A stretch of 64,000 nt of DNA from an uncultured virus (IMG/VR IMGVR_UViG_3300011830_000001) (Duplodnaviria; Heunggongvirae; Uroviricota; Caudoviricetes), in IMG/VR virus record IMGVR_UViG_3300011830_000001, positions 1-64,000 of that record; one strand, written 5' to 3'. Shown here in pieces: positions 15,869 through 46,471 of the stretch. Each line of letters begins with the position of its first letter. Positions within the stretch are counted from its first letter, which is position 1. A program made the position numbers and the translations under genes. The notes beneath the pieces are model-generated. The model had not been told where the DNA came from and ran no database searches. It was given only the letters and a program-made list of their open reading frames with translations.

Positions 15869-15875
15869 CTCGCAC

Positions 15876-15981: not shown

Positions 15982-15998
15982 CCAGCGAGGGTTAACCT

Positions 15999-18213: not shown

Positions 18214-19046
18214 TGAACTACAACGATGATGAGGATTTCCCGGACGTCGATCCGCTCGCGCCGACGCCGGAAGAAATCGCGCTGGTGCGGGCCAGCCTGA
18301 ATCCGGTACCCGCGCCCGCTGCGCCTGTGCACCCGCTCACTACAGCCGAGGTGACTGACAACACAAACCACTCCGGATCGCCGGGCACTCCCGAGGATTC
18401 ATCTGATAAACAGGCATGGCCAAACCCTGAGAGCGAGATTTTATCTCGTACTGATGCCGGGCAGCAGGCCCACCAGCCCCCGCAGAAAACGGCGCTGCCC
18501 CAGCTGGATAAGCTGCATGACTTGAGCCAGATGCGCCGCCGCTTCACCGTGGATGAGCCGTTTAATAACCTGGTACGCGATGACTGGCAGAAGGCCATCG
18601 AGGGCGACCCGTTTGCTTTCGATGCCCTGCTCTTTTTGCCGGAGTATGCAGACCGCCCGGCGGACGCAGCCAGCGGTTTCGAAAAGCCGGAGTTCACCGA
18701 GATTAACGCCAACCAGCGCGAGCTGACCTACGGCGATCCGGTTGTTGTCACGCTGCTGGATTGCCCGGATGAACGCGACTCTTTCTATGCGACCGACAGC
18801 GACCAGGAAGACGACGGCAACGTTGATGATTTTCTCGTTGTGCGCAGCAGCGCCACGGGGATCCCGATTGGCTCCGTGCTGGGATGGTTTGAGAAGAACG
18901 CCGCAGGCCAGGACGTCCCGCGCTGGTGGTATGTGCTGAAAATCTTTGCCTATGGCTCGGCGAAGGTCGGCTCACTGTATTTCATGATCCCGGCCCGTAA
19001 TTTCCCCGAACAGCAGCAGGCGGAGGCTACCCATGCACTCGACTAA
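18213..19046 (+). CDS. P1 gp7-like neck/tail protein
   Basis: FNNLVRDDWQKAI, LLDCPDERD, KIFAYGSAKVGSLYF. Confidence 0.85.
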   Translation: MNYNDDEDFPDVDPLAPTPEEIALVRASLNPVPAPAAPVHPLTTAEVTDNTNHSGSPGTPEDSSDKQAWPNPESEILSRTDAGQQAHQPPQKTALPQLDKLHDLSQMRRRFTVDEPFNNLVRDDWQKAIEGDPFAFDALLFLPEYADRPADAASGFEKPEFTEINANQRELTYGDPVVVTLLDCPDERDSFYATDSDQEDDGNVDDFLVVRSSATGIPIGSVLGWFEKNAAGQDVPRWWYVLKIFAYGSAKVGSLYFMIPARNFPEQQQAEATHALD

Positions 19047-19815
19047 ACGGCACCGCCTGATCGACGTCCTGCGCACTAATGACCTGACAGATACGGGAAA
19101 GCGGGAGGTCTCCGGCTTCCATGAGGTCGATATTGCTTTTGGCAATTTCATCACTGACCTGATTGACGGCTTCTGCATTAACGAGCCGGATGCCATAAAT
19201 GCGGCCTTCCACGCCTACTGTGAGCGACCCAAAGCGGAAAAGGTGGTAATGGGTCGGTTCGATGACGTTAACGCCCTGCTGACGCACATACGCCGCGCCC
19301 GTGAGAAGGATAAAGACAACGGCAACCAGGTGCAGCTACCGCTGGTGAATATCAGCCGTAATTTTATGGTGACGTATGGCAACGGGGATCGGGCAATCGC
19401 CGATACCCATACAGGCGATTTCGTCTACAACGACAAGAAGGAGATCATCGGCGTGACCGCCAGCGTGCCTGCGACCCTCACCTATGACCTGTGGGTAGTC
19501 GGCGCGGATAAGGAATCCACCAGCCTGCTGATCAATGCGCTGGCGGCTGAATTCAGCCTCATGCTGAACACGGGCTTTAAAGCCCATACGCGTATCGCTA
19601 CCGGGCCTGCCGTACTGGATTGCGGCATCGATGGCGTGCGTAACTTCATGATGAACGACACCAGCCCTGACAGCGAATCTGAGCGCCTCTATGTGGGCGC
19701 TACCCAACTGAACGTCATCACCTCTGTCCTGATCGTCTACAACGTGACGCACGTTCGATCACGTGTACGGGTCATGACCCCTGAAACCATGCCGGAAAGT
19801 TCCACCCATGAATAA
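19033..19815 (+). CDS. P1 gp24-like tail terminator/completion protein
   Basis: Follows gp7 as in P1; LPLVNISR motif. Confidence 0.75.
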   Translation: MHSTKRHRLIDVLRTNDLTDTGKREVSGFHEVDIAFGNFITDLIDGFCINEPDAINAAFHAYCERPKAEKVVMGRFDDVNALLTHIRRAREKDKDNGNQVQLPLVNISRNFMVTYGNGDRAIADTHTGDFVYNDKKEIIGVTASVPATLTYDLWVVGADKESTSLLINALAAEFSLMLNTGFKAHTRIATGPAVLDCGIDGVRNFMMNDTSPDSESERLYVGATQLNVITSVLIVYNVTHVRSRVRVMTPETMPESSTHE

Positions 19816-22795
19816 GATCCCTTTCGCATTAGGCCGCGCCTCGGGCGTGGCGGCATCCGAGCCGGAGTATAACCAGGAGGTTAAATACATCCGGGGCCAG
19901 GCTGTCTTTGCCGGGCTGGTGGTGGCCCGCCGTGGCAAGCCGTTCTCCGTGATTACCGTGGATGCCGATAACTGGCAGCGTAAATTAGGCACGCCTGCAC
20001 ACCCGCGTGAAGGCAGGCAGTTTGAATCCCTGCGCCACGTCGCGCAGGCCGTCAACGGCGGATCCGGCAAAGTGGTGCGCGTGGTCGGGCGTGATATGCG
20101 CGTGCCGCTGCTGCGCCTGACCGTAAACGACACTCCGGCACCAGTTACAACAGGTAAGGTCAACCTCGCCGTATCCACCTTCTCTGTCAGCAAAAAGGTT
20201 TTGCTGGCGGACGGTAAAGACGAAATCACCGTGCAGCTGGTTGCCAAAGACAAAAACAACAATCTGTTGCTGAACCAGAGCACTATCGTATTCAAGTCGC
20301 TGGGCCGCACGCAGCCGACTATCAGCCAGACCTATGAGATTAACGGTACCTACTACGCCACCCTCACTGCCAACAAATCGGATCGCCTTCTGCTGATCGT
20401 GCTGGAGGGTAATGAGCGCATAGGCACTTTTGAGGAATATGTTGATGTGCGCCCGGCAATCATCGACCCGGACAAGAGCATATTCACCGCGACGCCGGAT
20501 ATCCTTGATGGCGATGGAAGCCAACAGGCCACGCTCCTGCTTAAGGCGATAGATCCGGATGGACTGGAGATCAGCGGCCTGAACAATATTGAGTTCGTGG
20601 TAACGGGTAACGCCAACCCACTGATGACCAATATTCTGGAGGTTATGCCGGGCGTTTATCAGGCCAAAGTATCCGCCAGCAACCAGGGCACAATGGTTGT
20701 CACTGTGCGTCAGAACGGCGTGCTGATGGCCCCGCTACAGCTCTCTATCCGCCTGGTGAAGGTTGTGCATGGCGGTATGACATTTGAGAATGCCAGCACA
20801 TTTGACGTCATCCCGCGTGAAATCTATGCCGATGGAAACGACACCTCTAATCTCATCTTCACCGTTGCGGATAAAAACGGGGCGCGGATTAAGGGGATCG
20901 CAAACCAGCTGAGCTTTAAGGTGGAGGGCATTACCCAATTCACGCTGAGCGCTATCACAGAACAGCGCAGCGGCCTCTACGAGGCAACCCTGCAATCAAC
21001 CGATAAGGGCCAGGCCACTATTACCCCCGTGCAGTATTACAACGGTCGGGATGTTGAGCTAAAAAAGCTTGCAGTAGACATTGAGGCCATTGAGACACCT
21101 CGCGTTGATGCAGCCCTTACTACGCTGACTAAAGACAAATCGCGCATTATCAACAACGGGACGGACTGCGTTGCTTATACGCTCAGGCTGAATGACGCGC
21201 AAAATAAGCCGATCTCCCATCTGCACGGGCTGTCTGTGGTGGTCACATCCGGGGCGGGCACGATCTCCCAGCTGAACGAATCCAAACCGGGCGTTATCAC
21301 GTTTACTGTCACCAGCACCTACTATGGCGACGTTGAAGTAAGCCTGATGCAATACGGCGCACCGCTCGGCACCATCACAGATCGCTTTGTCTCCGCCCCT
21401 GTTTCCGCCCTGACGCCGACGAACAGCACGCTGGTGGTTAAGGCTATGCAGACCGATGGCGTGGCGCAGGTGATGATTGAGCAGCCGGAGGTCAGCGCAT
21501 TAGCTGTCATTCCACCAGCTGCCCCAGCCGTTAAAACGTGGGTGCATGTCAACTTTGCTGCCGTAGAGCCATTCAGTGAAGTGACTGACGAGGGCAACCC
21601 AATCACCCTGGCCGATGATGACCTGATGGTCATTTATCCGGATGACGGCGAAGCCAGCACAAACCGCAGCGTGGAGATCATGCCGGACGTTGAGCCAGGT
21701 AAATGGCTGCTGGTACTGAACGAGACCGACAACATGGGTATTGATACCATGCTGGAGCGCTGGTCATTCAGCCTCGATCCGCAGGGCCGGGACGCGTATG
21801 GCCTGCCGGACTGGCTCCCTCTCAAGCTGGAGGCAAAAAATTCCCGCCTCCGGGCTATTGTGCAGCCGGGCGTGCCCTTCCCGGATACGTTTACGGGGAT
21901 TGAAAGTACGCGCTTTGTAGGCGGCACTGACGGCGACAATAACGCGCTAACAGTAGCTGACTACCGCCGCGCCCTGAACGCGCTCAGTGCCTCGATGGAC
22001 ACCTACAACGTTATGCTGTCGCTCGGCTGCTATGAAGGCGCGGTGATCGAAGACCTGGCCCAACATGCATGGGATCGGCGGATCGATATGTTTGCCGACG
22101 TGCCGTGTGAATACAGCCCCCAGCAGGCGTTTAACTTCATGCGTTCGCTGAGCCTGGGCAACTTCCCGAACGTGGCAATGTATCACTTCCCGTACAGCTC
22201 CCGTGACCCGTTCACCCGAATCCCTGTTGTCTATGGCCTGTCCGGAGACGTCTTCTACGCGAAAGCACGCGGCGTGCTACAGGTGCGCGGCTGCGGTGGC
22301 TGGCACTTCGCTCCGGCTGGCATGGCCCGCGCCACTATCCGCCGCTTGTCCATTGTTCCACTGCATGAGAACGCGGACGAGATCGACCGTGAAGCGTACG
22401 TGACGGCCCGCCTTAATCCGGTAGCCTCCGGTGTAACCGGGGCGCTCCAGATTGATGACTCACTGACGACGTGGAGCCAGAACAACGATCTGCAATATCA
22501 GAACATCACCAGCGTGATGAACAGCATTACCCGTGATCTGTATGAGATCTGTAGGGTGATCAAACACGACCCAAGCAATGTGCCCGGCGTGGCGCTGCGC
22601 CGGGAGATTCCGCTGCTGCTTGATGAGTATGTGAATGCGGGTGCGCTGGTGGCACCGATAGATCCAACCAGCACACCGCTGCCGTACCTGTATGAGGTGG
22701 CGGAAGACGGCTTTGACGCGTGGAAGATATCGGTAGCCGTGTGCATTGTCGGCACGGCACGCCGGATCCAGTGCGAACCAATTATTTACCGTTAA
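19808..22795 (+). CDS. second tail-sheath paralog with about 4 inserted invasin-type Ig domains
   Basis: N- and C-termini align with the 36203 sheath (MNKIPFA, RGKP, IDREAYVTAR.NPVA, TTWS.NN, ARR...EPI..R); four ~100-aa ADG..T...D..G repeats in between. Confidence 0.88.
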   Translation: MNKIPFALGRASGVAASEPEYNQEVKYIRGQAVFAGLVVARRGKPFSVITVDADNWQRKLGTPAHPREGRQFESLRHVAQAVNGGSGKVVRVVGRDMRVPLLRLTVNDTPAPVTTGKVNLAVSTFSVSKKVLLADGKDEITVQLVAKDKNNNLLLNQSTIVFKSLGRTQPTISQTYEINGTYYATLTANKSDRLLLIVLEGNERIGTFEEYVDVRPAIIDPDKSIFTATPDILDGDGSQQATLLLKAIDPDGLEISGLNNIEFVVTGNANPLMTNILEVMPGVYQAKVSASNQGTMVVTVRQNGVLMAPLQLSIRLVKVVHGGMTFENASTFDVIPREIYADGNDTSNLIFTVADKNGARIKGIANQLSFKVEGITQFTLSAITEQRSGLYEATLQSTDKGQATITPVQYYNGRDVELKKLAVDIEAIETPRVDAALTTLTKDKSRIINNGTDCVAYTLRLNDAQNKPISHLHGLSVVVTSGAGTISQLNESKPGVITFTVTSTYYGDVEVSLMQYGAPLGTITDRFVSAPVSALTPTNSTLVVKAMQTDGVAQVMIEQPEVSALAVIPPAAPAVKTWVHVNFAAVEPFSEVTDEGNPITLADDDLMVIYPDDGEASTNRSVEIMPDVEPGKWLLVLNETDNMGIDTMLERWSFSLDPQGRDAYGLPDWLPLKLEAKNSRLRAIVQPGVPFPDTFTGIESTRFVGGTDGDNNALTVADYRRALNALSASMDTYNVMLSLGCYEGAVIEDLAQHAWDRRIDMFADVPCEYSPQQAFNFMRSLSLGNFPNVAMYHFPYSSRDPFTRIPVVYGLSGDVFYAKARGVLQVRGCGGWHFAPAGMARATIRRLSIVPLHENADEIDREAYVTARLNPVASGVTGALQIDDSLTTWSQNNDLQYQNITSVMNSITRDLYEICRVIKHDPSNVPGVALRREIPLLLDEYVNAGALVAPIDPTSTPLPYLYEVAEDGFDAWKISVAVCIVGTARRIQCEPIIYR

Positions 22796-22807: not shown

Positions 22808-23827
22808 ATGGCTACGTTGATGCAGATGTATCTGCAATCAGTCACCATTAACGGCGGTGAGGTTAACCGCCAGGACATTTTCGAGGCCTCCTACCTGGAG
22901 GTCATGGACTTTGACGGCCCTGTCCTGATGCTGAAAATTCGGGACTCGACTAACTACTACACCGATAACCTGAAAGTGTTGTTTGATGCCACTATTGTGG
23001 CCTCTCTCGGCGATCCGGGCGGGCAGTCGCTTTTCCAGGAGACCTTCTCCATCGTGCAGGCTCCCTTGCATGGTGACTTTATCGAAATCGTGGCTATCAG
23101 CCAGGCGGTACGCCAGCTGCTGACGCCGACGGTACAGCCGCAATACTTTGTGGACTCATCGCCGTCCGACGTCGTGCGCAGGCTGGGAAGCGGCTTGCGT
23201 ACCGATCTGGATGGCCTGAATACGTCCGGTACATGGCACCTCAACAACGGCATGAAGCCCGCCGTGCTGCTCAAACAGATCGCCCGTGACGCGGGCGCAC
23301 GCGCATGGGCGACACGCGGCACGCTGAAAATGAAATTAGTGGCCTCAATGCTGAGCGCGGCCCCGTCGTACACCTACGAAATGAACAACCCCAAAGCGAC
23401 GTTTACCATCAACAAATGGCGCTGGATAAACACCGACCACGCCGCGCAGGCGAAGCACAGCCACCAATTTATGAGCTATGACGAGCAAAAAGGGTTTGTG
23501 AGCACGGGCGCGGATGGCATGCCCGTACGCCTCATCTCTAACCCGGATTTAGGCGTACTCCAGGGGCAAGCGCTGGGCCTGCTCCCCAAACTGGACGCCG
23601 AGGTCGGCGGCAATCCGGGGATCGCGGTCGGGATGACGATTAAGGTGGTGATCAACCGCTACGACAAGGAGAGCCGGGAGAACGAATCCATTCCTTCGGT
23701 CATGGTGGTGGAGCGCGTGTGTCAGTATGAGGGACGCTTTAACCATCTTACCCGGATGATCCTTGCGGTTCCCAACCAGTCCAATTCCAGTGGCCTTATG
23801 TCAGGCCAGACCTCATCGTTTAAATAG
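22808..23827 (+). CDS. P1 gp6-like baseplate hub protein
   Basis: 339 aa; YLEVMDFDGPVLMLKIRD; precedes gp5. Confidence 0.8.
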   Translation: MATLMQMYLQSVTINGGEVNRQDIFEASYLEVMDFDGPVLMLKIRDSTNYYTDNLKVLFDATIVASLGDPGGQSLFQETFSIVQAPLHGDFIEIVAISQAVRQLLTPTVQPQYFVDSSPSDVVRRLGSGLRTDLDGLNTSGTWHLNNGMKPAVLLKQIARDAGARAWATRGTLKMKLVASMLSAAPSYTYEMNNPKATFTINKWRWINTDHAAQAKHSHQFMSYDEQKGFVSTGADGMPVRLISNPDLGVLQGQALGLLPKLDAEVGGNPGIAVGMTIKVVINRYDKESRENESIPSVMVVERVCQYEGRFNHLTRMILAVPNQSNSSGLMSGQTSSFK

Positions 23828-25143: not shown

Positions 25144-25174
25144 CCTGGCGTAAATCAACCCATGAGGAAAAATC

Positions 25175-30619: not shown

Positions 30620-31351
30620 TCATTCTGTTTCGGGTTTACTGTCTTTCAGCGTATCGATGATCGTGAATTTAAAGCTGGAGCCTTCAATGGTGACTGCTAC
30701 GCGTAGCGGGGTGTGCTTGTTGATCTGCTTTAACGCGCTGTCTAAAAATCCTCGCTTCACCCATGACGGCCTGCCTATAACCGAATCAGTGAAATCATAC
30801 CGCGCCGCGAAATCATCCAGTGTGGTATTCCACCAGCCACTATCGCGCCTTAAGCACAGATCCTCGTAAAGCCTAATCTGGTTCGTGCTGGTTAACTTGC
30901 CGCATTCTTTCATGTTGAACCGGGCAAAGCCGCGCTCCAGCTCTTTCAGGTAAGGCATGACGCTGGCGGTAAAAATCACCTCATGCTCAGCAGTTGGCTT
31001 GCCTTTGCCGTTACTTTTCACCATTTCCAGCCAGCGCATTTCGATCTCTTCCCACTCTGAATCATCAGAGGGTGAAAATCTCACGGTGCCTTCATACAGA
31101 GCCGCCAGCCCGGCCCGCACATCACGGGAAGCCTTAGCCGCGTCACAGCCAAAGTAGGTGCGGTAGCGTGCTGCGCTTATCTTAAATACCCCATCATGCG
31201 CATCACGCGAATCTGCCATATTCAGATCAGAGAGGCACATCAACAGGATGCGTTTTGCAGACAGCGGCATGACATACACTGAATTCATCAAAGCCCTGCC
31301 CTGGGCGATGCGAGGGTTGTCTTTCGTCGTTAAGAGTTTGCTGCTCATCAC
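30620..31351 (-). CDS. Rep_3 family (RepB/RepE-like) plasmid replication initiator
   Basis: KRILL, F...VMPYL.EL..GF, IRLYE, FL..ALKQINKHT; adjacent to an iteron origin. Confidence 0.9.
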   Translation of the reverse strand: MMSSKLLTTKDNPRIAQGRALMNSVYVMPLSAKRILLMCLSDLNMADSRDAHDGVFKISAARYRTYFGCDAAKASRDVRAGLAALYEGTVRFSPSDDSEWEEIEMRWLEMVKSNGKGKPTAEHEVIFTASVMPYLKELERGFARFNMKECGKLTSTNQIRLYEDLCLRRDSGWWNTTLDDFAARYDFTDSVIGRPSWVKRGFLDSALKQINKHTPLRVAVTIEGSSFKFTIIDTLKDSKPETE

Positions 31352-31939: not shown

Positions 31940-31960
31940 CTATTAAACTCTGGCTATCCT
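31940..31960 (+). promoter_or_regulatory. putative late promoter
   Basis: CTATTAAAC-6 nt-TATCCT. Confidence 0.7.
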
Positions 31961-34215: not shown

Positions 34216-34317
34216 ATCTTCTTACTCAGAATGTCGTCATTTTTTCGAGCATACCGGGAGTTTATTAGAGGCCGGGAACCTTTTTTCGTGCTGATCCAAA
34301 AATTTCCTTCACATTCG

Positions 34318-34338
34318 TTAATAACCTTTTTTTACCCT
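34318..34338 (+). promoter_or_regulatory. putative late promoter of the capsid operon
   Basis: TTAATAACC-6 nt-TACCCT. Confidence 0.65.
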
Positions 34339-34391
34339 TAGTCCGTCGAAATTTACACCCCGTGATAGCGCAATAATTATGGGCCTATCCC

Positions 34392-36137
34392 GTGAAGAAC
34401 CTAATTCAAGAGCGTCAGATCGATACTGCGACCCGCGCTAAAGAAGTGATGGCGTTTGCCGTCGAGCCGCAGTTTAACGATGGCAAATATATCGAAGATG
34501 ACGAAGCTCGCCGTACTGCGATCTTCGAAGCAGCAGTTAAATCACCTCTGTTCGAAGGTGCGCCGGAGCCGTTCGTGCGTATGGTTTCTAACGCATGGGC
34601 CACCTCTATCGGTGAGTACGCGACTAAGTACGACGTGTACCCGAACGCCGAAGAGTTGGCGAACTCCCACCGTGCAGCTCAGCGCTTCATGATGGAGTCC
34701 GCTAAAACCCAGCACAGCGGCTTTGCTGGCCCGATGTTCGAAGCGGCTTCCGGCGATATGCAGAAATCTGACGGCATTATGCGCCAGGCGCTGTTCGTTG
34801 CGATGATGCTGCCTGTGGCGCTGGGCGCTGCAACTGGCGACGCCTGTACTTTCGTACCGTGCGAACGTGACGAATCTGATATCTACAGAATCACCCAGGT
34901 AGCTGCGTCTACTTTTGGTAGCTACAAGCCAGGTGATGAGCTGGATATGCAGTCTGCTGGTGTCTATAGCCAGTTCCAGCGTACAGGCCTGTTCCCGGCT
35001 ACCTACGCCGACGTTAAAACGCCAGGCGTCACTGCGAACGCGGGCGATAAAAACGTCCCTGATGGCTCCCTGACCTTCTTTGGTATCAAGGTATCTGGTC
35101 TTGAGTCTGCGTTTGGTCTTAGCAAAGATCTGCCTATTCGTCCGGGCCGCACCATGCTGCTTATCAACCGTATGCCTGCCCGTAGCTATGATGATGGCTT
35201 AGGTAATATTTACTGGAACGGTAAGGATGCTAAAGGCAACGCGTTCAAAGTTGCAGGTACCATCTGGCCTACCGAGGGTGTGGTTGAAGTTAAGTTTGAT
35301 ACCGCGCCTCCTGCTGGTACCGAGCTGGCTCTGACCTTCGAGCTGGACGTTGAAAACAAGCCAGAAATCATCCCGCTGATCAACCAAAAAATGGTGAAAT
35401 TCACCGTTAAGCCGTCTCAGTATGCTCTGGCTACTGAATACAGCGTGCAGGCGCTGATGGACGCGCAGCGTGAATTTGGTCTGGATCTGTCTTCCCAGCT
35501 GTTCAACGGTGCACGTAACTGGCTGTCTCACGAAACCGATATGAAGCGCCTGCGTGAAATGCTGTGGCGTGCCGTATACACCGCAAATATCAAAACTGGC
35601 TGGAAGTCTGGCGATCAGGTTGATGCTTTCGCATCTCGCCTGCGCGTGCAGTTTAACAAGCTCAGCAACGACATGGTGCAGCGCACCAAAACTACGGGCG
35701 TCCGTGGCGGCTTCGCTGGTGCTACCGTGGTCAACATGCTGCGCTCCCTGCCGTCCTCCATGTGGACACCAGCGCCGGGCTATGCCGAATCGCCGTACGT
35801 GCAGTTTGCAGGCACCCTGTTTGGCTCGATCCGCATCTATGAAGTGCCTAATAAGGTCTGTGCTCAATTCGTGAATGAAGGCCTGCCGCTGGATGATTCC
35901 TCCTGCCTGTTCTACGGTCGCGGCGAAAACATTGGCGATGCTGGCCTTGTTGCTGGCGACGCTGTAGCAGCCATTCCATTCGTTCACCCAACCACTCCGC
36001 AACTCGTTAACCGCGTCACCCTGTGGGGCAGCGCTGTGAACGTTGTCCACCCGGATCACGGCGAAGACTACTTCACCCTGGCGAAATTCTCCGAAACCGA
36101 TCTGGATGGCGTGATCACCGTTCACTCCAACCCGTAA
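34392..36137 (+). CDS. major capsid protein gp23
   Basis: 581 aa P1 gp23-like; codon usage typical of high expression; first gene of the 23-22-21 block; hairpin at 36153-36173. Confidence 0.93.
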   Translation: MKNLIQERQIDTATRAKEVMAFAVEPQFNDGKYIEDDEARRTAIFEAAVKSPLFEGAPEPFVRMVSNAWATSIGEYATKYDVYPNAEELANSHRAAQRFMMESAKTQHSGFAGPMFEAASGDMQKSDGIMRQALFVAMMLPVALGAATGDACTFVPCERDESDIYRITQVAASTFGSYKPGDELDMQSAGVYSQFQRTGLFPATYADVKTPGVTANAGDKNVPDGSLTFFGIKVSGLESAFGLSKDLPIRPGRTMLLINRMPARSYDDGLGNIYWNGKDAKGNAFKVAGTIWPTEGVVEVKFDTAPPAGTELALTFELDVENKPEIIPLINQKMVKFTVKPSQYALATEYSVQALMDAQREFGLDLSSQLFNGARNWLSHETDMKRLREMLWRAVYTANIKTGWKSGDQVDAFASRLRVQFNKLSNDMVQRTKTTGVRGGFAGATVVNMLRSLPSSMWTPAPGYAESPYVQFAGTLFGSIRIYEVPNKVCAQFVNEGLPLDDSSCLFYGRGENIGDAGLVAGDAVAAIPFVHPTTPQLVNRVTLWGSAVNVVHPDHGEDYFTLAKFSETDLDGVITVHSNP

Positions 36138-36202: not shown

Positions 36203-39200
36203 ATGAACAAGATTCCTTTTGCCGTCGGGCAGGCAGCAGCGATTGCTGTCATGCAGCCGAACGCCGATGCCACCTACAGCAATGCTGCGGGTGGGTTAAG
36301 CGTTTTTGCGGGCATTCTGCCAGCTAAACGCGGCAAACCGCTCTCAGTGCTCCAACTGACTAAAGATAACTTCCTGAGCGTGCTGGGCGATGCGATTGCA
36401 CCGCATGACGGCATCGCCTTCGAGCCGATTCGCCACGTGCGCCAGGCGCTGAACGGCGGTAACGGCTATGTAGTCCGTGTGTGTCCTAAATCCATGCGTA
36501 TCCCGGTGCTGAAACTGCAACAGCCAGCCAGCAGCGCAAGCCAGGTGATCGACTTTAACCGCTCCGTCTTCAATACCGATCTGGACGCGCAGGCTGCCGA
36601 CGGCTACAGCCGCATTGTGCTGCAATTCACGCCGAAGGACTCAAAAGGCAACGTTATTACGGGCCTGGGTAAATCGGTTATCGGGTTTGCCGTATCTCCT
36701 GCTGCTGATGCGCAGATCTCCGCTGTGACCGAGAGTAACGGCGTTTACACTGCCTACCTGACGTCTACCGTGTCTGGTACGCTTAGCATTAGCGTTACGC
36801 AATCCGGCATCCCTATGCCGACCTTCTCGCGCTCTGTCGTGATGAAGCCTGCACACGTTGATACTGTGCGCTCCACGATTAGCGTAAGCCCTGGTGCTAT
36901 CACCGCGAACAACAGCGAAACTGCTATCGTCACCCTGATGGCCCGTGATGCGAGCAACGCGGCAATCACTGACGTTGATAACATCGATTTCGTTGTCACT
37001 GGCAACCAGGCTGTGAGCATCATTACCAAAAAGCCTTCTACCGACGGCAAAGGTAACTACTCCATCCAGGTGAAAGCGTCCGCGCCGGGCGATGCCACTA
37101 TCCAGGCACGCCAGGACGGTTCTAACATCGCTGGCATGGCTGCGGCATTGCAGGTTAAAGCGGTCAGCTCAAGCGTCACTCCAGTCATCGATCCGGCTAA
37201 CTCAAACATCCTGGTTTCTCCGGGTCAGATTGAAGCGAACAACAACGATCAGGCGACGATCACCTTCACGGCAGTAGATAATGCAGGCGCACCGCTGGCG
37301 GGCCTCACTGGCCTCTCATTCGTGGTATCCGGCGTTGCTGGTTATAACGTGAGTGCTATCACTGACAAGGGTGACGGTTCCTACACTGCCTCGATCTACT
37401 CTTCTGGTGATGGTGCGGCAATCATCAAGGCGCAGCTGGACGGAAAAGATATCGGCAGCAAAACCGCTTCCCTGTCCATCGTCAAAACTGCTGCTCCGGT
37501 CATCAACGCCAATCAGTCCTCCCTGACCCGCAGCCCTGCTACCATTGCGGCAGACGGCAAGGCAGCAAGCGTCATTACCTTCCTGGCGGTTGACACCACG
37601 GGCGCGAAAATGACCGGGCTGGCCTCTCGCCTGGCATTCAACGTGAACGCCAGCGGGGCCACCATTGACCAGATCGTCGAAAACGCGGGTTCCCCAGGCT
37701 CCTACTCTGCCAACCTGACCGCTACCAAAACGGGATCTTTTGCGGTATCCGTATCACTGGATAACGTGCTGGTGGGCGTGCAGAGCGTGTCTGTCACCGT
37801 TGCCCCGGTTAACATCAATGGCGTGGATGCAGCTAAATCCGTGCTGAATGCCAGCATCAGTGCCGGGATCGCAGGGGATGACACTGCTACGCTGACCTTT
37901 GAAGCCAAAACTGCTTCGGGCAACGCGGTAACGGGCCTGACTGATGTGACATTCCATCTGTCCAACTATCCGGGCGAGCAGGCTCTCAGAGCGACGGAAT
38001 ATACCCCTGGCACCTATACAGCAGATCTGCCACTGGCAGGCGTGGGTGATATTGCCGTAACTGTGTCCGCTAACGGTGCACTGGTGCAGGGTAAAGCCCT
38101 GAACATTACCGTTAAGCCGGGTGCAGACGAAGGCAGTTCTGATTTCACCCTGTCCAAAGCCGCAGGCACGGCGGGGAGTGACACCACCGATCTGGCGTTT
38201 ACGGCGAGAGATACGAATGGCGACGCGGTGACTGGCCTGAGCGTTACCGTGGACATTACAACTGCCAGCGGTAAGGCAACCATCAAAATGCCGGAAGACG
38301 GCATTACGGGCGTGTATAAGCTCCATTATGTGATGGTTGAAGCGGGTAGCGTGGCCTTTGCAATTAACGTCGGCGGTAAAGCGCTGGCGGCGGCGAAATA
38401 CAGTAAAACGATTACTGTTGCCAACCCTGTGCAGCTCATCGACCCGGCTAAATACAAGGTTAGCGTCTCCCCTGCTTCCGCTGTTGCTGATGGCACTGCT
38501 GTTGTTACCGTGACTCTGGAGCCTATCGCTGCGGCGGACAAAGTGGAAGGTCTCACTAACCTGACCCTGGGCCACACTGAATCTACAGTGATGACGCAGT
38601 ATGTCACCGCCAACAAATTTGTCGAAGACGCCGCCACCAAAGGGACGTATACGGCAACTGTTACCTCGACTCTGCAAGGTGCCGTACAGCTCGTTGCACA
38701 GGAAGCAGGTGCGAACCTCACTGGCCTGAAAACGTCGGCAACGTTTACCGCGAATGCCGATAACGTAGACAAATCCAAGTCCAGCCTGGTGCTGTCTAAA
38801 AAGTCCATCATCGCTGATGGCAACGATACCACCAACGTCAACTACACGGCGAACGACAAAGAAGGCCAGCCGATTATCGGGCTGACCAACGTAACCGCAG
38901 TTGTTTCCGGCGTGACAGGTATCACCATCAACCCGACTACCCTGTCTAACGGCGGCAATGGCGTTTACACCACCACCATCAAAGGCAACAAAGATGGCTC
39001 TGCGACCGTAGACATCAAAGTTGGCACCCAGGACGGGATCGCTACGCCGCAGACGCTGACGCTTGCCGTGGTGGCACCAGTTGCGGATGTGAGTGGCGCG
39101 GGCGGTTCGTTCTCTGTTTCGTCCAATACAGCTGTAGCTGATGGATCCACGTCTGTCGTGGCTACCCTGGTGCTGGTGGATACCAAAGGCCAACCGTTTA

Positions 39201-41788
39201 CAGGCGCAGCGGGCGATCTGACGCTGGATGCTGGTAACGTGTCTGGTGTAACTGCGGGTACGTTCACCGAAACTGCGACCCTCGGTACTTATACCGCTAA
39301 TGTAAAAGCCTCGACTGCCGTTGCCTCGCTGATGCTGAAAGCGAACTACAAGGGCACGCTGATCCCAGGCTTCACCAAAACCGTGACCTTTACTGCGGCT
39401 CCGCGTGTCGATTTCGATGCAGCTGACACCACTATCGCTGTACACGGCGGAACGGGTACGGCGAACAATGAGGTCACGCTGTGCTACGGCTCAACCACTA
39501 CTGATATTGTGCTCGACCTGCACTTTGTCAAAGATGGCAATCCGGTAACGGGTATCTCCAACGTTACGCTGACAAGCTCCGATCCGTCCGTGCAGTGTGG
39601 CGCAATCACAGCAGCTGTCCCGGCGTCCGCTGGTGATTACACCGCTACTCTCAAAGTCAGCAAAAAAGGCACCTTCACCGTTACGCTGGTGGATGATGGC
39701 GCTGACACCACCGTCACTCTGGCTGTTAAAGTTCTGGCCTCGAAAGCGTCCAGCATTAACATCGGCAATTCCAGCTTTACCGCATCAGCGAGCAGCCTGG
39801 CTGCGGGCGGTACCGATACAGTTAGCCTGACCTTTACTGCGAAAGACGATGCCACTCCGACGCCGGGCGCGGTCTCTGGCCTGCTGCCTGATCTGACCTT
39901 TGCGCCGAAAGCAGCGAACGCGAAAATCCACATCGGGACGATCTCCGAGGGCGCTGATAGCAACGGTGTGTACACTGCAACTGTGACGGGTGATACCGGC
40001 TTTGCGACCACTGAAATCGTCGTGAAATGGAAAGGCGCACAGATCGGCACTTTCTCCAGCATCATCACTGAGAAGGCTGTCACGACCCCAGCCACGCAGT
40101 CGATTGACCCGGAAGAGTCTGTCTTTACAGCAGTTCCTGCCACGTTCACTGACGACGGTTCTGACTCGATCACGCTGACCTTCACCGCGAAGGACAACAC
40201 CTCGGGCCATGCCAATATGAGTGGCCTGAACGTTGTATTTGAAGCGGCGGCGACCACTACGGGCCTGATCATTGGCTCCGCGACAGAAGTGGGTACCTCC
40301 GGCGTTTATCAGGCCGAAGTGACGTCCACTGCGCAATTCACGGATCTTCAAATCGACGTCTACATTGGCGGATCTAAGGCCAGCGGCGGCGTGAAAGTAG
40401 CGATCCCGACAGCGAAAGCCGTGAAGGTAACGTGTACTGACCACACATCCCCTGTCACTGCTTCGCGCATGGTGACTCAAATCAACGGGCCATACTCTGC
40501 TGCCTCTGTTGCGTCAACCAGCGCGGTAACGTACGCAGCGCCTGTTGCAGCCAGCCAGGCTATCACCATCGCGTCTACCACCATCAGCGTGGGGCAGGAT
40601 GTTGTGCTCGGTGACAATGACCTGATGGCTATCTACGTGGACGATGGCGATGCGTCTACAGACCGTCAGATCACACTGTCACCGCAGGATGATGGCCTCT
40701 GGCTGCTGACGCTGGAGCAGCTCGTTACGGGCGGAACGAAAGTGCTGGAGTCCATCGAATTCAGCCTGTCCACGAGCGCGATTGATGACATGGGCCTCCC
40801 GGCTTACCTGCCTACCAAACTGGAAAACAGCAACTCTCGCCTGCGTGCTGTGGTAGCGAAAGATGCAGAATTCCCGCTGGGCTTTACGGGGATCGCAGAT
40901 CCGGCGCTGTTCGTGGGTGGCTCAGATGGCGATCTGGACTCCCTGACGCCGGACGACTACGCGCAGGCGCTCAGCGTTCTGTCCGCCTCAATGGTGAACT
41001 ACACCGCCGTGCTGGGCCTGGGTTGTTATGACGATATTGTGCTGCATTCCCTGGCACAACACGCCTCAGACGTCCGCGTTGATATGTTCTGTGATATCCG
41101 TCCTGGCCTCTCCGGCACGCAGGCTATCACGGCAGCAGCAGCGCAAAACTTTGGCGGCTATGCCAACGTGGCCCGTTACCACTTCCCGTATTCCTCCAAA
41201 GACCCGATCTCCGGGGCACAGATGGTTTACGGCCTTTCTGGTGATGTGTTTACCGCGAAAGCCAAAGGCGTTGCGCTTAACAACGACGTCGGCGGCTGGC
41301 ACTACAACCCGGCTGGCCCGGCCCGCGCAACGCTGGATCGCGCCAACATCAAGCCACTGCCTGGCGCGGCTTCCATCGACCGTGAAGCGTATGTGACGGC
41401 CCGTATCAACCCGGTAGCAGTCGGCTCTGACGGCTCTGTTGTGATTGACGATGAGCTGACTACCTGGAGCAAGAATAACTACCTGCGCTTCCAGCACGTC
41501 AACTCCACGTTGAACGCCATCGCACGTGCCGCCTATGACATTTGCCAGAGTCTCAAACACGAGCCGGACGGCATTACCCGTAATGGCCTGACCAAAGAGC
41601 TGACCCGCCTGCTGGAGCGCTACGTTGCCTCCGCCGCGCTGGTAACGCCACGCGATGCGACTCAGGGGACTTCGCCTTTCGTGGTTGAAGTGACTCAGGC
41701 CGAATTCGATCTGTGGAACATTCGCCTGTTCGTTTGTCCGACTGGCGTGGCCCGTCGCATGAGCGTTGAACCGATCCTGTTCCGTTAA
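36203..41788 (+). CDS. tail sheath protein gp22 with about 12 inserted invasin-type Ig domains (1861 aa)
   Basis: P1 sheath N- and C-termini (RGKP.SVL, NNYLRFQHV, CPTGVARR) flank 12 Big-like repeats at about 36550-40430. Confidence 0.92.
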   Translation: MNKIPFAVGQAAAIAVMQPNADATYSNAAGGLSVFAGILPAKRGKPLSVLQLTKDNFLSVLGDAIAPHDGIAFEPIRHVRQALNGGNGYVVRVCPKSMRIPVLKLQQPASSASQVIDFNRSVFNTDLDAQAADGYSRIVLQFTPKDSKGNVITGLGKSVIGFAVSPAADAQISAVTESNGVYTAYLTSTVSGTLSISVTQSGIPMPTFSRSVVMKPAHVDTVRSTISVSPGAITANNSETAIVTLMARDASNAAITDVDNIDFVVTGNQAVSIITKKPSTDGKGNYSIQVKASAPGDATIQARQDGSNIAGMAAALQVKAVSSSVTPVIDPANSNILVSPGQIEANNNDQATITFTAVDNAGAPLAGLTGLSFVVSGVAGYNVSAITDKGDGSYTASIYSSGDGAAIIKAQLDGKDIGSKTASLSIVKTAAPVINANQSSLTRSPATIAADGKAASVITFLAVDTTGAKMTGLASRLAFNVNASGATIDQIVENAGSPGSYSANLTATKTGSFAVSVSLDNVLVGVQSVSVTVAPVNINGVDAAKSVLNASISAGIAGDDTATLTFEAKTASGNAVTGLTDVTFHLSNYPGEQALRATEYTPGTYTADLPLAGVGDIAVTVSANGALVQGKALNITVKPGADEGSSDFTLSKAAGTAGSDTTDLAFTARDTNGDAVTGLSVTVDITTASGKATIKMPEDGITGVYKLHYVMVEAGSVAFAINVGGKALAAAKYSKTITVANPVQLIDPAKYKVSVSPASAVADGTAVVTVTLEPIAAADKVEGLTNLTLGHTESTVMTQYVTANKFVEDAATKGTYTATVTSTLQGAVQLVAQEAGANLTGLKTSATFTANADNVDKSKSSLVLSKKSIIADGNDTTNVNYTANDKEGQPIIGLTNVTAVVSGVTGITINPTTLSNGGNGVYTTTIKGNKDGSATVDIKVGTQDGIATPQTLTLAVVAPVADVSGAGGSFSVSSNTAVADGSTSVVATLVLVDTKGQPFTGAAGDLTLDAGNVSGVTAGTFTETATLGTYTANVKASTAVASLMLKANYKGTLIPGFTKTVTFTAAPRVDFDAADTTIAVHGGTGTANNEVTLCYGSTTTDIVLDLHFVKDGNPVTGISNVTLTSSDPSVQCGAITAAVPASAGDYTATLKVSKKGTFTVTLVDDGADTTVTLAVKVLASKASSINIGNSSFTASASSLAAGGTDTVSLTFTAKDDATPTPGAVSGLLPDLTFAPKAANAKIHIGTISEGADSNGVYTATVTGDTGFATTEIVVKWKGAQIGTFSSIITEKAVTTPATQSIDPEESVFTAVPATFTDDGSDSITLTFTAKDNTSGHANMSGLNVVFEAAATTTGLIIGSATEVGTSGVYQAEVTSTAQFTDLQIDVYIGGSKASGGVKVAIPTAKAVKVTCTDHTSPVTASRMVTQINGPYSAASVASTSAVTYAAPVAASQAITIASTTISVGQDVVLGDNDLMAIYVDDGDASTDRQITLSPQDDGLWLLTLEQLVTGGTKVLESIEFSLSTSAIDDMGLPAYLPTKLENSNSRLRAVVAKDAEFPLGFTGIADPALFVGGSDGDLDSLTPDDYAQALSVLSASMVNYTAVLGLGCYDDIVLHSLAQHASDVRVDMFCDIRPGLSGTQAITAAAAQNFGGYANVARYHFPYSSKDPISGAQMVYGLSGDVFTAKAKGVALNNDVGGWHYNPAGPARATLDRANIKPLPGAASIDREAYVTARINPVAVGSDGSVVIDDELTTWSKNNYLRFQHVNSTLNAIARAAYDICQSLKHEPDGITRNGLTKELTRLLERYVASAALVTPRDATQGTSPFVVEVTQAEFDLWNIRLFVCPTGVARRMSVEPILFR

Positions 41789-41827: not shown

Positions 41828-42670
41828 ATGAAAGACAAATTTCGTCAAGGCTTGCTGAATAGCTCCCTGTCCTATGCCTTTGCAACCCCGGTCGGCAACA
41901 TGATGCTGGAATCTGCCCGCCAGGAAAACGAGGCCGAAGCGCTACGCCTGAAAGAGCAGGAAGACGAGGCCAAAAAGGAGCAGGAGCGCACTGCCCTGCT
42001 GGAATCCGCAGAGCGCATTGTTGAAGAACGCCGCATTGAGCTGGAAGAACGTGAAGCAGCTGCGGCCCTGGCCCTGAAAAACGGTGAGCCGGAAATCATG
42101 TTCGCTAACGCGCTGATGGAAGCCGCTGCAACCAATGATCGCGGTACCGCTGCGGCATCCGTGCTCCAGTGGAAATCCGACGGCGACGCCTCCAGCGAAT
42201 CCTTTGAGGAATACGCCTTTGCGCTGGCAGGGATCTCCGATGACGAGACCGACCTGACTGACGACGAAGTAGACAACTTCAATACCCAGCTGGATCTGAT
42301 GGCGCAGGCTGCTATCGCGCTGGGCGCGAGTGCAGACGACGTGGCAACCATGATCGACGAGGACGACAGCGACGCGGCGCAGGCAGTAATTGATGCCATC
42401 AGTACCCCTGATGACGAAGACGCAGCAGTCGCCTCCTTCGCCGTCTCCGGCGGTGACAACGGCGCAATGATGGAAAGCGCCATGATGGAAGCGGCGATCA
42501 AAGTTGTTCGTAAGGGCCAGATTGTCCTGAAACGCAAGGTGCCGCACAAAGTCCGCCTGTCCAGCCTGCAAAAAGCAGCCCTGAAAAAGGCCCGGATGAA
42601 GGCGCATACCGCTATGGCGAATATGTCCCGTGCGAAGTCTATGAAGGTGCGCCGCAAGCGCGGTCTGTAA
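41828..42670 (+). CDS. P1 gp21-like protein (acidic body, basic C-terminus; probable head core)
   Basis: ALAGISDD, KVVRKG, QKAALKKARMKAHT...SMKVRRKRGL. Confidence 0.85.
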   Translation: MKDKFRQGLLNSSLSYAFATPVGNMMLESARQENEAEALRLKEQEDEAKKEQERTALLESAERIVEERRIELEEREAAAALALKNGEPEIMFANALMEAAATNDRGTAAASVLQWKSDGDASSESFEEYAFALAGISDDETDLTDDEVDNFNTQLDLMAQAAIALGASADDVATMIDEDDSDAAQAVIDAISTPDDEDAAVASFAVSGGDNGAMMESAMMEAAIKVVRKGQIVLKRKVPHKVRLSSLQKAALKKARMKAHTAMANMSRAKSMKVRRKRGL

Positions 42671-43424: not shown

Positions 43425-43916
43425 ATGCCTGGTTTTAGTAATGCAAAAGCGAACCTCGGCTTTGTTAAATCCCGCTACAACATGAACAAAGCAGCGGGTG
43501 AAAAGCTGATCGGCTCTGATTACTGGTTGATCATCAAGGGCTACGAAAAACTGTCCATTCTGGTGCGCACCGTGCAGCTCCCGGAAATTACCCGTGAAGA
43601 CGTTGAAGACGTGGCCCCCGGCGGCGCGAAATTCAGCCAGCACGGACCTTTCCGTAACTCCGGTGAAACCCAGGTGCAGTGCGTTGAGACCATTGAGGGC
43701 GATGTGCTGAAAGCCGTGCGCGATCTGGTCTTCAACAAGCGCTATGTGGATATCGATCTGTACCTGTCCTCTGAGTCCAAAGGTGGCCCTGGTGACACTC
43801 CGGTGTGCTCTATGGAAGACGTGAAAATTTACTGCGATGCAGTCGATTTCGCTTCCGAAGATACCACCGCCGTTGTGCGCCCTTCCCTGCGTCTGGTCTA
43901 TAACTGGCACGAATAA
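43425..43916 (+). CDS. bplB: BplB tail tube protein
   Basis: TREDVED, QHGP.RNSGE.QVQCVETIEGD, VRPSLRLVYNW. Confidence 0.9.
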   Translation: MPGFSNAKANLGFVKSRYNMNKAAGEKLIGSDYWLIIKGYEKLSILVRTVQLPEITREDVEDVAPGGAKFSQHGPFRNSGETQVQCVETIEGDVLKAVRDLVFNKRYVDIDLYLSSESKGGPGDTPVCSMEDVKIYCDAVDFASEDTTAVVRPSLRLVYNWHE

Positions 43917-45243: not shown

Positions 45244-46131
45244 ATGCAGATCCCTTTATTCCCGCTGCCGTCGAACATCACGACGGAAATTAATTTCGGT
45301 ATGCCTTCCGTGCAGATGGCTATGGACTATTGCAGTGCAGACGCCACACAGGAAGAAGCGCTCACCACGCGCTATCTGAACGAGCTACAGCGCCCCGGAG
45401 ACGCTTTCCGGGATAGTGCGTTATGGACAGCACAGGATCGCCGTACGGCGCTCTGGTGGGTTTTCACAAACAGCCGCATTGATACCATGCTGACCTGCTC
45501 CTATATGTGCCCGCACTGCGGCGATATCCATTTTGTCGATACCGATATGCGGGAACTGGCGGACGGTCTGGAGGTGCTGAGCGAAGGTGCAACCAGCGAA
45601 TACGAAGGTACCCGGAAAGACGAGCCTGTCACGCTGACGATCACCCACCTGGACGGACGCGCTATGGTGCATCTTGAAAGCCTGCGCGCGCAGCTGCCGC
45701 CGGAAGACAGCGACGAATTCAGGGCCGAGTGGATAAACCTGCGCATGATCGAGATAGCTCACCAGCTGCGCTTCCCGGACGAGCCGGAGGACTTTCTTGC
45801 CGCTGCGGAGTACCGCTATAACGCGCTCAGGGAAATGGATCTGGAAATGGAGTTTCAGCCGCTGGTGGCCTCCGTTCAGCTGTTTAACCGCCGCAATGCT
45901 CACGGCCTTGATATCGCCATCAACAAGGGTGTGACCGTCCTTAATCTCCCCGATCATCCGTGTCCTAAATCCGGTAAGGAGGGTGCCGCGCCGTTGTTCA
46001 CGCCGCTGCACCTGCCATTTCGGAATAGCCAATTCCTTCCGAATTTTCGATCTGAGTGGCTGGGATACGCTGACGAACAATCTCGCGCTGTACGGCAATC
46101 AGCCGATTGGAGACGTACTCCGGCTGGCTGA
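45244..46131 (+). CDS. pmgB: PmgB, probable tail assembly chaperone
   Basis: PLFPLPS, WTAQDRRTALWW, CPHCG; precedes the tape measure gene. Confidence 0.85.
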   Translation: MQIPLFPLPSNITTEINFGMPSVQMAMDYCSADATQEEALTTRYLNELQRPGDAFRDSALWTAQDRRTALWWVFTNSRIDTMLTCSYMCPHCGDIHFVDTDMRELADGLEVLSEGATSEYEGTRKDEPVTLTITHLDGRAMVHLESLRAQLPPEDSDEFRAEWINLRMIEIAHQLRFPDEPEDFLAAAEYRYNALREMDLEMEFQPLVASVQLFNRRNAHGLDIAINKGVTVLNLPDHPCPKSGKEGAAPLFTPLHLPFRNSQFLPNFRSEWLGYADEQSRAVRQSADWRRTPAG

Positions 46132-46209
46132 ATGGAAGGCGATCCGGCTCAACGAAGCACTTGAGAACAAGTACAAAAAGCAGCCAGCTTAGCGCCATTC
46201 ATCAGTCCC

Positions 46210-46251
46210 TTATCTGGCGCTTGTTTGTCTAAATAAATAAGCGCCAGATAA
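46210..46251. other. long hairpin/palindrome
   Basis: TTATCTGGCGCTT (46210-46222) / AAGCGCCAGATAA (46239-46251). Confidence 0.7.
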
Positions 46252-46323
46252 CAGCCAATACAAGGCACTTAGGGACTGTTTACGTAAAATTTAAGTGCTC
46301 CTTTTTTGCCTCTTGTCGCCTCC

Positions 46324-46428
46324 GCTAATTAAATGTCAGTAAAATGGCAATTAGTAGGCATTCAAGGAGCATTTAAAAGGCAATTAACAGCAGCGTTCAA
46401 GCCAGTGACCTTATAACGGCATTTTAAG
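46324..46428. repeat. 11-bp degenerate tandem repeats, candidate centromere
   Basis: GCTAATTAAAT|GTCAGTAAAAT|GGCAATTAGTA|GGCATTCAAGG|AGCATTTAAAA|GGCAATTAACA, plus GGCATTTTAAG at 46418. Confidence 0.65.
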
Positions 46429-46471
46429 TGCTAGTTATGAGACAGATAGCGATCTATTAAATGGCGGTTAT

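Follow-up and report, generated by a model that had tools for sequence, protein, structure and literature searches.

How can one open reading frame (ORF) be a contractile tail sheath at both of its ends and a tandem array of adhesin-type domains in between, and what would such a protein do on a phage particle? This question is raised by a 64,000-nucleotide stretch of DNA (hereafter the window), which constitutes the first 64 kb of the 99,199-bp IMG/VR virus record IMGVR_UViG_3300011830_000001, a record with a 77-bp terminal repeat that is rated 100% complete. The ORF at positions 36203-41788 of the plus strand, here named S1, is uninterrupted over 1861 codons and encodes a protein of 1861 amino acids (aa), which an earlier note, made from the DNA letters, had described as a giant sheath protein carrying about 12 invasin-like immunoglobulin (Ig) domains. 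The analyses presented here indicate that S1 is very probably a sheath subunit with a surface-exposed Ig array. To the fuller statement, namely that S1 supplies the main subunit of the contractile tail sheath in a complete 99-kb P1/D6-like phage, that its Ig loops are displayed for adhesion and that a second sheath paralogue, S2, is a minor component, we give slightly better than even chances.

Sheath identity of the S1 protein

A comparison with PHROG assigned S1 to phrog_1036, 'tail sheath', with an expectation value (E) of 3.7e-143 in two stretches, one of which aligns profile positions 114-530 of 531 with S1 aa 1441-1860, while the S1 N-terminus is covered by the second. Among PDB sequences the top match was the P1 sheath protein gp22 (8jaj and four more entries, E 1.9e-116), in which residues 7-115 correspond to S1 residues 5-112 (independent E value, i-Evalue, 1.9e-17) and residues 117-528, domain I and the C-terminal arm included, correspond to S1 residues 1459-1860 (i-Evalue 1.1e-96). 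None of the gp22 residues is missing, and the approximately 1345 S1 residues in between are purely inserted, between the positions that correspond to gp22 residues 115 and 117. The sheath portions of S1 amount to ~112 aa at the N-terminus and ~403 aa at the C-terminus by both phrog_1036 and the gp22 alignment, in agreement with the first ~110 and last ~400 residues that the earlier note had read as P1-type sheath; its figure of roughly 530 aa for gp22 likewise agrees with the 529 aa given in PMC10304247. S1, of about 190 kDa, is three and a half times as large as a sheath protein normally is. The C-terminal part of S1 is ~44% identical to P1-like phages and 52% identical to D6.

The genomic context was also that of a P1-type sheath gene. 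The gene order of P1 and D6, namely capsid gene 23, sheath gene 22, gene 21, pmgG, bplB, pmgC, tub, pmgB and sit, is conserved and continues through pmgA, bplA, R, S, U, the holin gene, hdf, a darA-like gene and ddrA. The placement of S1 in this tail cluster, between capsid gene 23 and gene 21, fits a P1 gp22-type sheath, and S1 possesses a ribosome-binding site, GAAGG. Moreover, the S1 gene is real and not an assembly artefact. It was tiled at 95-100% identity, with zero listed indels, by contigs from four runs of four studies, whose samples were wastewater, food, a food fermentation and a coded organism. In one of these runs all 30 bins of S1 are covered, and no single listed piece spans the entire stretch; the runs listed included none recorded as RNA. 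Two short joints in one tiling run were considered as deletions, a reading that was rejected when they were judged to be cross-matches.

The Ig-domain array

The S1 protein matched Invasin_D3 (PF09134; E 2.3e-84, 11 stretches, 278.6 bits against a curated cut-off of 33) and Big_1 (PF02369; E 1.5e-45, 7 stretches, 153.7 bits against a curated cut-off of 34.9), which together with Filamin and YtkA are the only four Pfam families in S1. A profile built from the S1 repeats resolved 12 complete Ig copies over aa 117-1404, which share pairwise identities of 16-37%, and no DNA-level repeat longer than 31 nucleotides (nt) was found in the gene. Against PDB sequences, the array matched FdeC (4e9l, 6.3e-16) and InvD (5ldy, 2.2e-10). 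The 12 diverged repeats of about 100 aa counted in the earlier note were exact, and every countable detail of its description was correct; furthermore, the resemblance to Big and invasin D3 domains that it had proposed was borne out by the Pfam profiles (a HMMER-type check), by the PDB matches and by the similarity of two structural models to invasin 1cwv, FdeC and InvD.

A weak match that suggested a 13th partial Ig copy in the linker following the array disappeared with a broader profile. Derivation of the array from the small Ig-domain gene orf49 of D6 was rejected, because BLAST against S1 and S2 gave nothing and a profile comparison reached only E 0.0015. In D6, this gene (1951-2229, minus strand) encodes a free-standing 92-aa 'structural protein with Ig domain' and lies between the capsid and sheath genes. 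The birth of the array by duplication of the sheath's own domain III was also unsupported, with the D6 sheath scoring E 0.25-0.62 against the Ig profile.

AlphaFold was run on whole S2 (995 aa, 38-row alignment) and on S1 residues 742-1861. The S2 model, with a mean predicted local distance difference test score (pLDDT) of 85.8, showed the core and four beta-sandwiches with confidence and was disordered at 542-596. With Foldseek it retrieved P1 gp22 first (8jaj_a, E 6.2e-36; 9ay3_A, template modelling (TM) score 0.85 by target, within a gp22 range of 0.84-0.85), followed by invasin 1cwv (8.8e-21), FdeC 4e9l and InvD 5ldy. The model of the S1 fragment reached a mean pLDDT of 67.4, with domains 8, 9 and 11 at 70-90 and domain 12 moderate, and retrieved gp22 (8jan_m, E 1.6e-31, 42% identity), FdeC (5.8e-15) and invasin (1.1e-13). 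As modelled, both the S1 fragment and whole S2 have the sheath fold, and S2 domains 1-4 and S1 domains 8, 9, 11 and 12 have a beta-sandwich fold like that of invasin and FdeC. The reading of the repeats as Ig domains in the earlier note was borne out by the models for these domains; S1 domains 7 and 10 were poorly modelled. The pLDDT of S1 residues 1396-1451 (655-710 of the model fragment) was below 50, and the corresponding stretch of S2 was likewise disordered.

Insertion site and geometry of the display

In the P1 sheath as described in PMC10304247, domain I of gp22 (residues 426-516 of 529) forms the inner wall and touches the tube, domain II comprises residues 35-99 and 243-425, domain III (100-242) 'extends outside the sheath', and the N- and C-terminal arms interlock the subunits. 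The insertion point at gp22 residues 115-117 is about 15 residues into the outermost domain, III. Because the insertion falls in domain III, the array would lie on the tail surface and leave the tube contact and the interlocking arms undisturbed. Surface display of the array is well supported by this strong but indirect evidence from the alignment, and the projection of the insert from the sheath, as envisaged in the earlier note, accords with a site in the outward-facing domain. The long free Ig filament that the same note had assigned to each subunit does not, since the array is anchored at both ends, at the equivalents of gp22 residues 115 and 117. As the chain exits and re-enters the body at neighbouring residues, each subunit should show a closed flexible loop of 12 domains, unless the first 112 aa are swapped into the subunit next to it, and the reach of the loop would be about half that of a free filament. 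That every sheath subunit bears such an appendage holds for S1 with its 12-domain array and is uncertain for all subunits, as the second paralogue has four Ig domains.

The polymerising core would be of the ordinary gp22 type, consisting of domains I and II with both terminal arms, and the 12 Ig domains with the flexible 54-aa linker would be placed in a loop near the start of domain III, pointing away from the tube. The P1 sheath is described as 53 rings of six subunits (PMC10304247), and the presence of S1 in all rings of a P1-like sheath would bring several thousand Ig domains to each virion as a brush round the tail. From the dimensions given in the same source, the surface per subunit was calculated to be ~43 nm2 in the extended sheath (205 Å diameter, 40 Å rise) and ~25 nm2 in the contracted sheath (275 Å diameter, 940 Å over 53 rings). 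Either value leaves room for an out-and-back pair of Ig chains. The Ig-domain size used in this estimate was an assumed value.

Relatives with arrays of variable length

The C-terminal 421 aa were compared exhaustively, by HMMER, with 1.84 billion representatives (E up to 0.001), which gave 98 proteins, 11 of which showed the design of N-terminus, Ig array and C-terminus. Type 1 comprises S1's own cluster, P0003 (1757 aa), P0004 (1859 aa), P0005 (1671 aa) and P0006 (1910 aa), and type 2 comprises P0009 (1560 aa), S2's own cluster (995 aa), P0011 (3878 aa), P0012 (3637 aa), P0013 (3280 aa) and P0014 (2834 aa). A length-restricted search with the C-terminal region at 90% clustering gave 12 proteins of 1023-3257 aa and brought in five more members of type 1 (1665-1923 aa), including one from Citrobacter portucalensis. 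This rare clade was found in Enterobacter and Citrobacter records, among them isolates of Enterobacter hormaechei, E. cloacae and C. portucalensis (MEG5932554.1, HFU2857320.1 and P0110), and the public names of its members at NCBI are 'invasin domain 3-containing protein' or 'Ig-like domain-containing protein', not sheath.

A maximum-likelihood tree, computed in a quick version from 48 C-terminal domains (rows with 370 or more aligned positions, seven near-duplicates of the own proteins being dropped), placed the 11 Ig-array sheaths in one clade, with a support of 88 in the Shimodaira-Hasegawa-like approximate likelihood ratio test (SH-aLRT), and resolved type 1 (98) and type 2 (100) within it; a 422-aa fragment and a D6-like 551-aa protein stood just outside. 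The stem branch measured 0.52 for the S2 type against 0.19 for the S1 type. The simplest history suggested by the tree would be that the array was acquired once and that the gene, enlarged by then, was duplicated afterwards. In four type-1/type-2 pairs, both members have a longest contig of the same size (104,989; 85,242; 115,344, Enterobacter hormaechei; and 116,306, E. cloacae), and five genomes, the present one included, apparently carry one gene of each type.

The arrays were variable in both number and sequence. The counts of Ig domains were 12, 11, 12, 10 and 12 in type 1 and 9, 4, at least 20, at least 22, 24 and 20 in type 2, so that repeat number, which the earlier note had proposed to survey in relatives, ranges from 10 to 12 in type 1 and from 4 to at least 24 in type 2. 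One-to-one counterparts between relatives were recognised for domain 1 and sometimes for domains 2 and 3, and further in, the scores between proteins were no higher than those within a protein. The cores of the type-1 proteins are 60-68% identical and their arrays ~24-27%. Residues 2056-3234 of P0011 (1179 aa) gave weak Ig-profile matches at a spacing of ~60 to 240 aa and matched no Pfam family; this stretch may hold very diverged beta-sandwich domains or something else.

Other P1-type sheaths carry CBM_5_12 carbohydrate-binding modules in the same region (P0043, 678 aa; P0048, 1004 aa), and inserts without a Pfam match occur there in P0021 (803 aa), P0045 (741 aa) and P0049 (762 aa). The start of domain III seems to be a hotspot for insertions in general. 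Among curated phage records, 23 match, all of them P1-like, and neither the insert nor a query coverage of at least 80% was found in any of the 23. Megablast of the S1 gene against plasmids returned nothing, and none of the 902 PLSDB plasmid records that carry the sheath family exceeded 60% identity to the S1 C-terminal domain, the best relative being a normal 526-aa gene of Xenorhabdus bovienii. Relatives were present at three loci in IMG/VR (34-44% identity) and at eight loci in GTDB species representatives, where the matches of ~1560-1580 nt indicate normal length.

The second sheath gene

The S2 gene repeats the design of S1 on a smaller scale. The coordinates of its four Ig domains nearly coincide with those of S1 domains 1-4, and the two proteins are colinear, with 33% identity over residues 1-517 and 49% identity between the C-terminal domains. 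S2 lies between homologues of gene 24 and gene 6, whose P1 products are described as the tail terminator and the baseplate hub (PMC10304247, PMC12810830). In D6 these two genes abut, and the lone D6 match to S2 in tblastn is its single sheath gene; a second sheath gene between genes 24 and 6 is absent from P1 and D6, and PMC10304247 describes the P1 sheath as gp22 alone. The start codon of S2 and the stop codon of the terminator gene share an 8-nt overlap, no ribosome-binding site is evident for S2, in contrast to S1, and S2 appears to be translationally coupled to the terminator gene. The codon usage of S2 is like that of minor tail genes, which is weak evidence, as the reference set was chosen by the analyst. 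In an all-against-all comparison of the ORFs of the genome, the paralogues were, besides one unrelated pair, the sheaths S1 and S2 and a pair of capsid-like proteins, and no second tube or terminator gene was found; with one tube homologue only, both sheath paralogues would have to fit that tube. Two sheath paralogues within a single 99,199-bp genome make this a multi-paralogue sheath system. Gene position, terminator coupling, branch length and the weak codon evidence point to S1 most likely as the major trunk subunit and S2 as a minor specialised one, not an equal partner, possibly forming one or a few rings beside the terminator.

Proposed function and alternative readings

This division of labour can be carried further. 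In a two-component self-decorated sheath, S1 would build the trunk with closed 12-domain loops and S2 the terminal ring or rings, with loops of tens of nm that make a collar or whisker of sheath protein, and the contractile sheath would act as the primary low-affinity adhesin, its loop length tuned by domain gain and loss. We hold this picture only tentatively, as possible rather than probable; if true, these would be the largest sheath subunits known and the first contractile sheath to double as a phage's primary low-affinity adhesin. It is also conceivable, if unlikely, that S1 and S2 co-polymerise throughout the sheath in a mixed or alternating manner and form a brush of two lengths. Both proteins keep complete N- and C-terminal arms and a conserved core, the genome has a single tube protein, and some contractile injection systems use two or more sheath proteins according to PMC10304247; however, S2 lies in an operon of low-copy parts (stopper, terminator, hub and spike), is apparently coupled to the terminator and has a long stem branch. 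Finally, with two sheath genes one could be spare, so that S1 would not be a working sheath and S2 or a processed form would build the tail, the giant protein being absent from virions, trimmed of its insert or otherwise used. This seems very improbable, because S1 holds the ancestral gene-22 slot right after the capsid gene, its core resembles D6 and P1 more closely than the S2 core does (identity to the D6 sheath 52% for S1, 40% for S2), and its frame is intact in four independent runs and in all type-1 relatives. Moreover, the N-terminal 112 aa that the fold requires are encoded only 5' of the insert, and trimming must therefore leave two associated pieces.

The loops would most likely serve to attach the virion, weakly and multivalently, to polysaccharide of host envelopes or of the matrix around them, and would so keep it close to susceptible cells until the tail fibres engage. 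Adhesion has been proposed for extra Ig-like sheath domains by Evseev et al. 2022 (PMC9230969), and it is favoured here by the variable domain number, the loss of correspondence among interior domains, the gap in identity between cores and arrays and the presence of CBM_5_12 in related sheaths. By analogy, the binding to glycan, capsule or host surfaces that the earlier note had suggested is plausible, and we consider the odds on adhesion as the function of the array to be evenly balanced. Ig domains often mediate protein-protein contacts, and the arrays could instead be structural, cementing or cushioning the very long P1-type tail through contacts with neighbouring arrays or sheath bodies, with no binding role. 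Evseev et al. count stabilisation among the possible roles of extra sheath domains, with phage 812 cited (PMC9230969), and PMC10304247 gives P1-type tails an unusual length of 2450 Å. Cement would nevertheless be expected to have a fixed geometry, yet the domain number varies within and between the two types, interior domains do not match one to one across relatives, a disordered linker is predicted, and P1 and D6, whose tails are similarly organised, manage without the insert, all of which makes a structural role quite improbable. Because the appendage is surface-exposed and fast-evolving and its length is not set by the helical lattice, adhesion or a passive coat is preferred to precise cementing. 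As a passive steric coat, the arrays would form a hydrophilic brush without a specific ligand that protects against aggregation, unproductive sticking to debris or vesicles and external attack. Several thousand domains per tail would be present if S1 builds all rings, and the Ser/Thr/Ala-rich linker and the fast divergence of the domains are what would be expected where bulk alone matters; however, the Big_1/Invasin_D3 signature has remained recognisable in each domain over a long divergence, which suggests selection beyond bulk, and related sheaths put true carbohydrate-binding modules in the same region, so that a coat alone is highly doubtful.

Several points weigh against the interpretation favoured here. 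The specificity of invasin and intimin comes from a C-terminal lectin-like tip, and such a tip is absent from the arrays by Pfam, which recognised the four families only; an Ig ligand is only putative. S1 domains 1-6 are represented by sequence profiles, domain 10 was modelled with low confidence, and domain 7 has no confident model, probably because it was misplaced in the alignment onto the N-terminal core of homologues. AlphaFold is unreliable on the arrangement of domains, and the loop follows from chain topology. The tree is a quick version with SH-aLRT as its measure of support, and the pairing of type-1 and type-2 genes comes from equal longest-contig sizes. In addition, a pattern derived from five annotated P1 late promoters, with up to one mismatch allowed, found no P1-type late promoter box upstream of S1; it had 3 matches in the sequence against 1.25 expected by chance, and only the one before gene R is plausible.

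Other features of the genome

The positions of the features discussed are collected in Table 1. With up to two mismatches allowed, the motif CTAWTAAAC-N6-TATCCT has four sites where chance would give 0.05. The second capsid-like gene, the PAAR/upfC homologue, a minus-strand ORF and the holin gene are each preceded by one, S1 by none, and the motif may represent a late-promoter type that belongs to the phage itself. Inspection by eye showed a T-rich box, AACCTTTTTT with variants, to recur in intergenic regions at 34216-34395, 15820-16002, 24950-25180 and 46125-46475, where it precedes the main capsid homologue, an ORF that begins at 15999, the second capsid-like gene and sit.

The second capsid-like gene is inserted between gene 5 and hrdC, a site that is empty in D6, and its product may be a specialised vertex or decoration paralogue. 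With S2 and this gene, both high-copy surface proteins of the phage are duplicated. The product of the darA-like gene is longer than that of P1 darA (1920 nt, ~640 aa). The replication-initiation homologue would suit a phage that lives as a plasmid prophage, as P1 and D6 do.

Table 1. Positions of S1, S2 and other features in the window (nt, counted from its first letter).
Feature	Position	Strand	Basis or remark
S1 giant tail sheath gene, 1861 aa	36203..41788	+	ancestral gene-22 slot: capsid gene, S1, gene-21 homologue
S1 N-terminal sheath segment, aa 1-112: gp22 N-terminal arm, start of domain II, first domain III residues	36203..36538	+	PDB alignment; domain limits as described in PMC10304247
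S1 array of 12 Big_1/Invasin_D3 Ig-like domains, aa 117-1404	36551..40414	+	Pfam, repeat profile; fold support for domains 8, 9, 11, 12
S1 Ig domains 1-12, aa 117-215, 220-319, 330-427, 435-534, 542-638, 642-738, 747-849, 856-957, 964-1064, 1072-1178, 1186-1291, 1302-1404	36551-36847, 36860-37159, 37190-37483, 37505-37804, 37826-38116, 38126-38416, 38441-38749, 38768-39073, 39092-39394, 39416-39736, 39758-40075, 40106-40414	+	repeat-derived profile
S1 linker, aa 1405-1458 (54 aa), Ser/Thr/Ala/Val-rich, predicted disordered, returns chain to sheath body	40415..40576	+	pLDDT <50
S1 C-terminal sheath body, aa 1459-1861: remaining domain III, domain II, domain I, C-terminal arm	40577..41785	+	phrog_1036, gp22 alignment, Foldseek 8jan_m E 1.6e-31, 42% identity
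Major capsid protein homologue (P1 gene 23), 5' of S1	34392..36137	+	
Gene 21 homologue, 3' of S1	41828..42670	+	
Tail tube (BplB) homologue	43425..43916	+	sole tube homologue in genome
S2 sheath paralogue, 995 aa, S1-like design	19808..22795	+	phrog_1036 E 3.5e-115, two stretches
S2 four Ig domains, aa 119-528	20162-21391	+	profile; disordered linker ~aa 531-596 follows
Gene 24 homologue (P1/D6; tail terminator in P1), directly 5' of S2	19033..19815	+	tblastn against D6
Gene 6 homologue (P1/D6; baseplate hub in P1), directly 3' of S2	22808..23827	+	tblastn against D6
Second capsid-like gene, 532 aa	25175-26773	+	phrog_1014 E 3.1e-39; 26% identical to main capsid homologue 34392-36137
Replication-initiation protein homologue, between dmt and PAAR gene	30620-31351	-	phrog_4402
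darA-like gene, 1111 aa	58025-61360	+	only first ~290 residues match DarA family (phrog_1926)
CTAWTAAAC-N6-TATCCT site	25123-25143	+	
CTAWTAAAC-N6-TATCCT site	31940-31960	+	
CTAWTAAAC-N6-TATCCT site	34248-34268	-	
CTAWTAAAC-N6-TATCCT site	56628-56648	+	

Comparison with known systems

Neither a sheath with an Ig array nor a P1-like phage with two sheaths was found described in open-access papers and preprints. Together, S1 and S2 occupy 8.6 kb of the 99-kb genome, and the corresponding genes of the Enterobacter hormaechei relative occupy a calculated ~16.6 kb of 115 kb; a cost so large implies a strong benefit. The system allows one to ask what the Ig domains of phage particles do and whether a contractile sheath tolerates very large surface cargo, the latter being relevant to display and to the engineering of tailocin-like particles. 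It also constitutes an annotation trap, as proteins named 'invasin domain 3-containing' could pass for bacterial virulence adhesins on plasmid-like contigs of Enterobacter and Citrobacter.

The closest known counterparts are P1 gp22 (PDB 8jaj, 8jan, 9ay3-9ay5) and the D6 sheath, which share with S1 a homologous core on both sides of the insert as well as the locus and its neighbours. Unlike S1, gp22 has 529 aa and is the sole sheath protein described for P1 in PMC10304247, whereas the present phage has an insert of ~1345 aa and a second paralogue. The multi-domain sheaths of 'type 2' and 'type 3' described by Evseev et al. 2022 (PMC9230969) resemble S1 in that the core is made of N- and C-terminal parts and the extra beta-sandwiches face away from the tube, with a role in adhesion or stability proposed. 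In the survey presented there, however, the extra domains number from one to 'five and more' and occur mostly in genomes above 100 kb and in jumbo phages, whereas in the present 99-kb phage 12 domains, all of one adhesin-type family, stand in tandem, and its relatives have at least 24 domains in proteins of up to 3878 aa.

The inverse-autotransporter adhesins (invasin, intimin, FdeC and InvD) have the same Big_1/Invasin_D3 domain type and the same tandem, rod-like use of it. In contrast to these adhesins, S1 has by Pfam neither a beta-barrel or secretion module nor a lectin-like tip, and its array is internal and closed at both ends, with both ends of the protein being sheath. By its sequence, S1 shares a domain type with the intimin and invasin adhesins and is not a member of their family. 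The Ig domains of siphophage tubes (Big_2 in lambda gpV, Big_1 in Chi gp22) likewise place an Ig domain on every subunit of a helical tail polymer; they are described in PMC9022992 as dispensable for assembly and thought to aid infection. These domains, however, are single and C-terminal and belong to a non-contractile tube, whereas the array of S1 is an internal one of 12 domains on a contractile sheath.

The 'hairy' jumbo phages CBB and phAPEC6 also have flexible filaments emerging from a contractile tail, for which a role in host interaction has been proposed (PMC5259590, PMC7247149). In phAPEC6, as described in PMC7247149, the fibres stand at three annular positions and the sheath protein is of 97 kDa, whereas here the projections lie within the sheath polypeptide. 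Several sheath paralogues that arose by duplication are also found in the antifeeding prophage (AFP) and the Photorhabdus virulence cassette (PVC), as described in PMC10304247, and in the jumbo phage PaBG, which has two sheath proteins (PMC7412058). In contrast to these systems, multiple sheaths are not known in P1-like phages, and both paralogues here have Ig arrays, of very different length. Sheaths with one to a few extra domains were known before; here, adhesin-type Ig arrays make up 70-85% of the length, which is of a different order.

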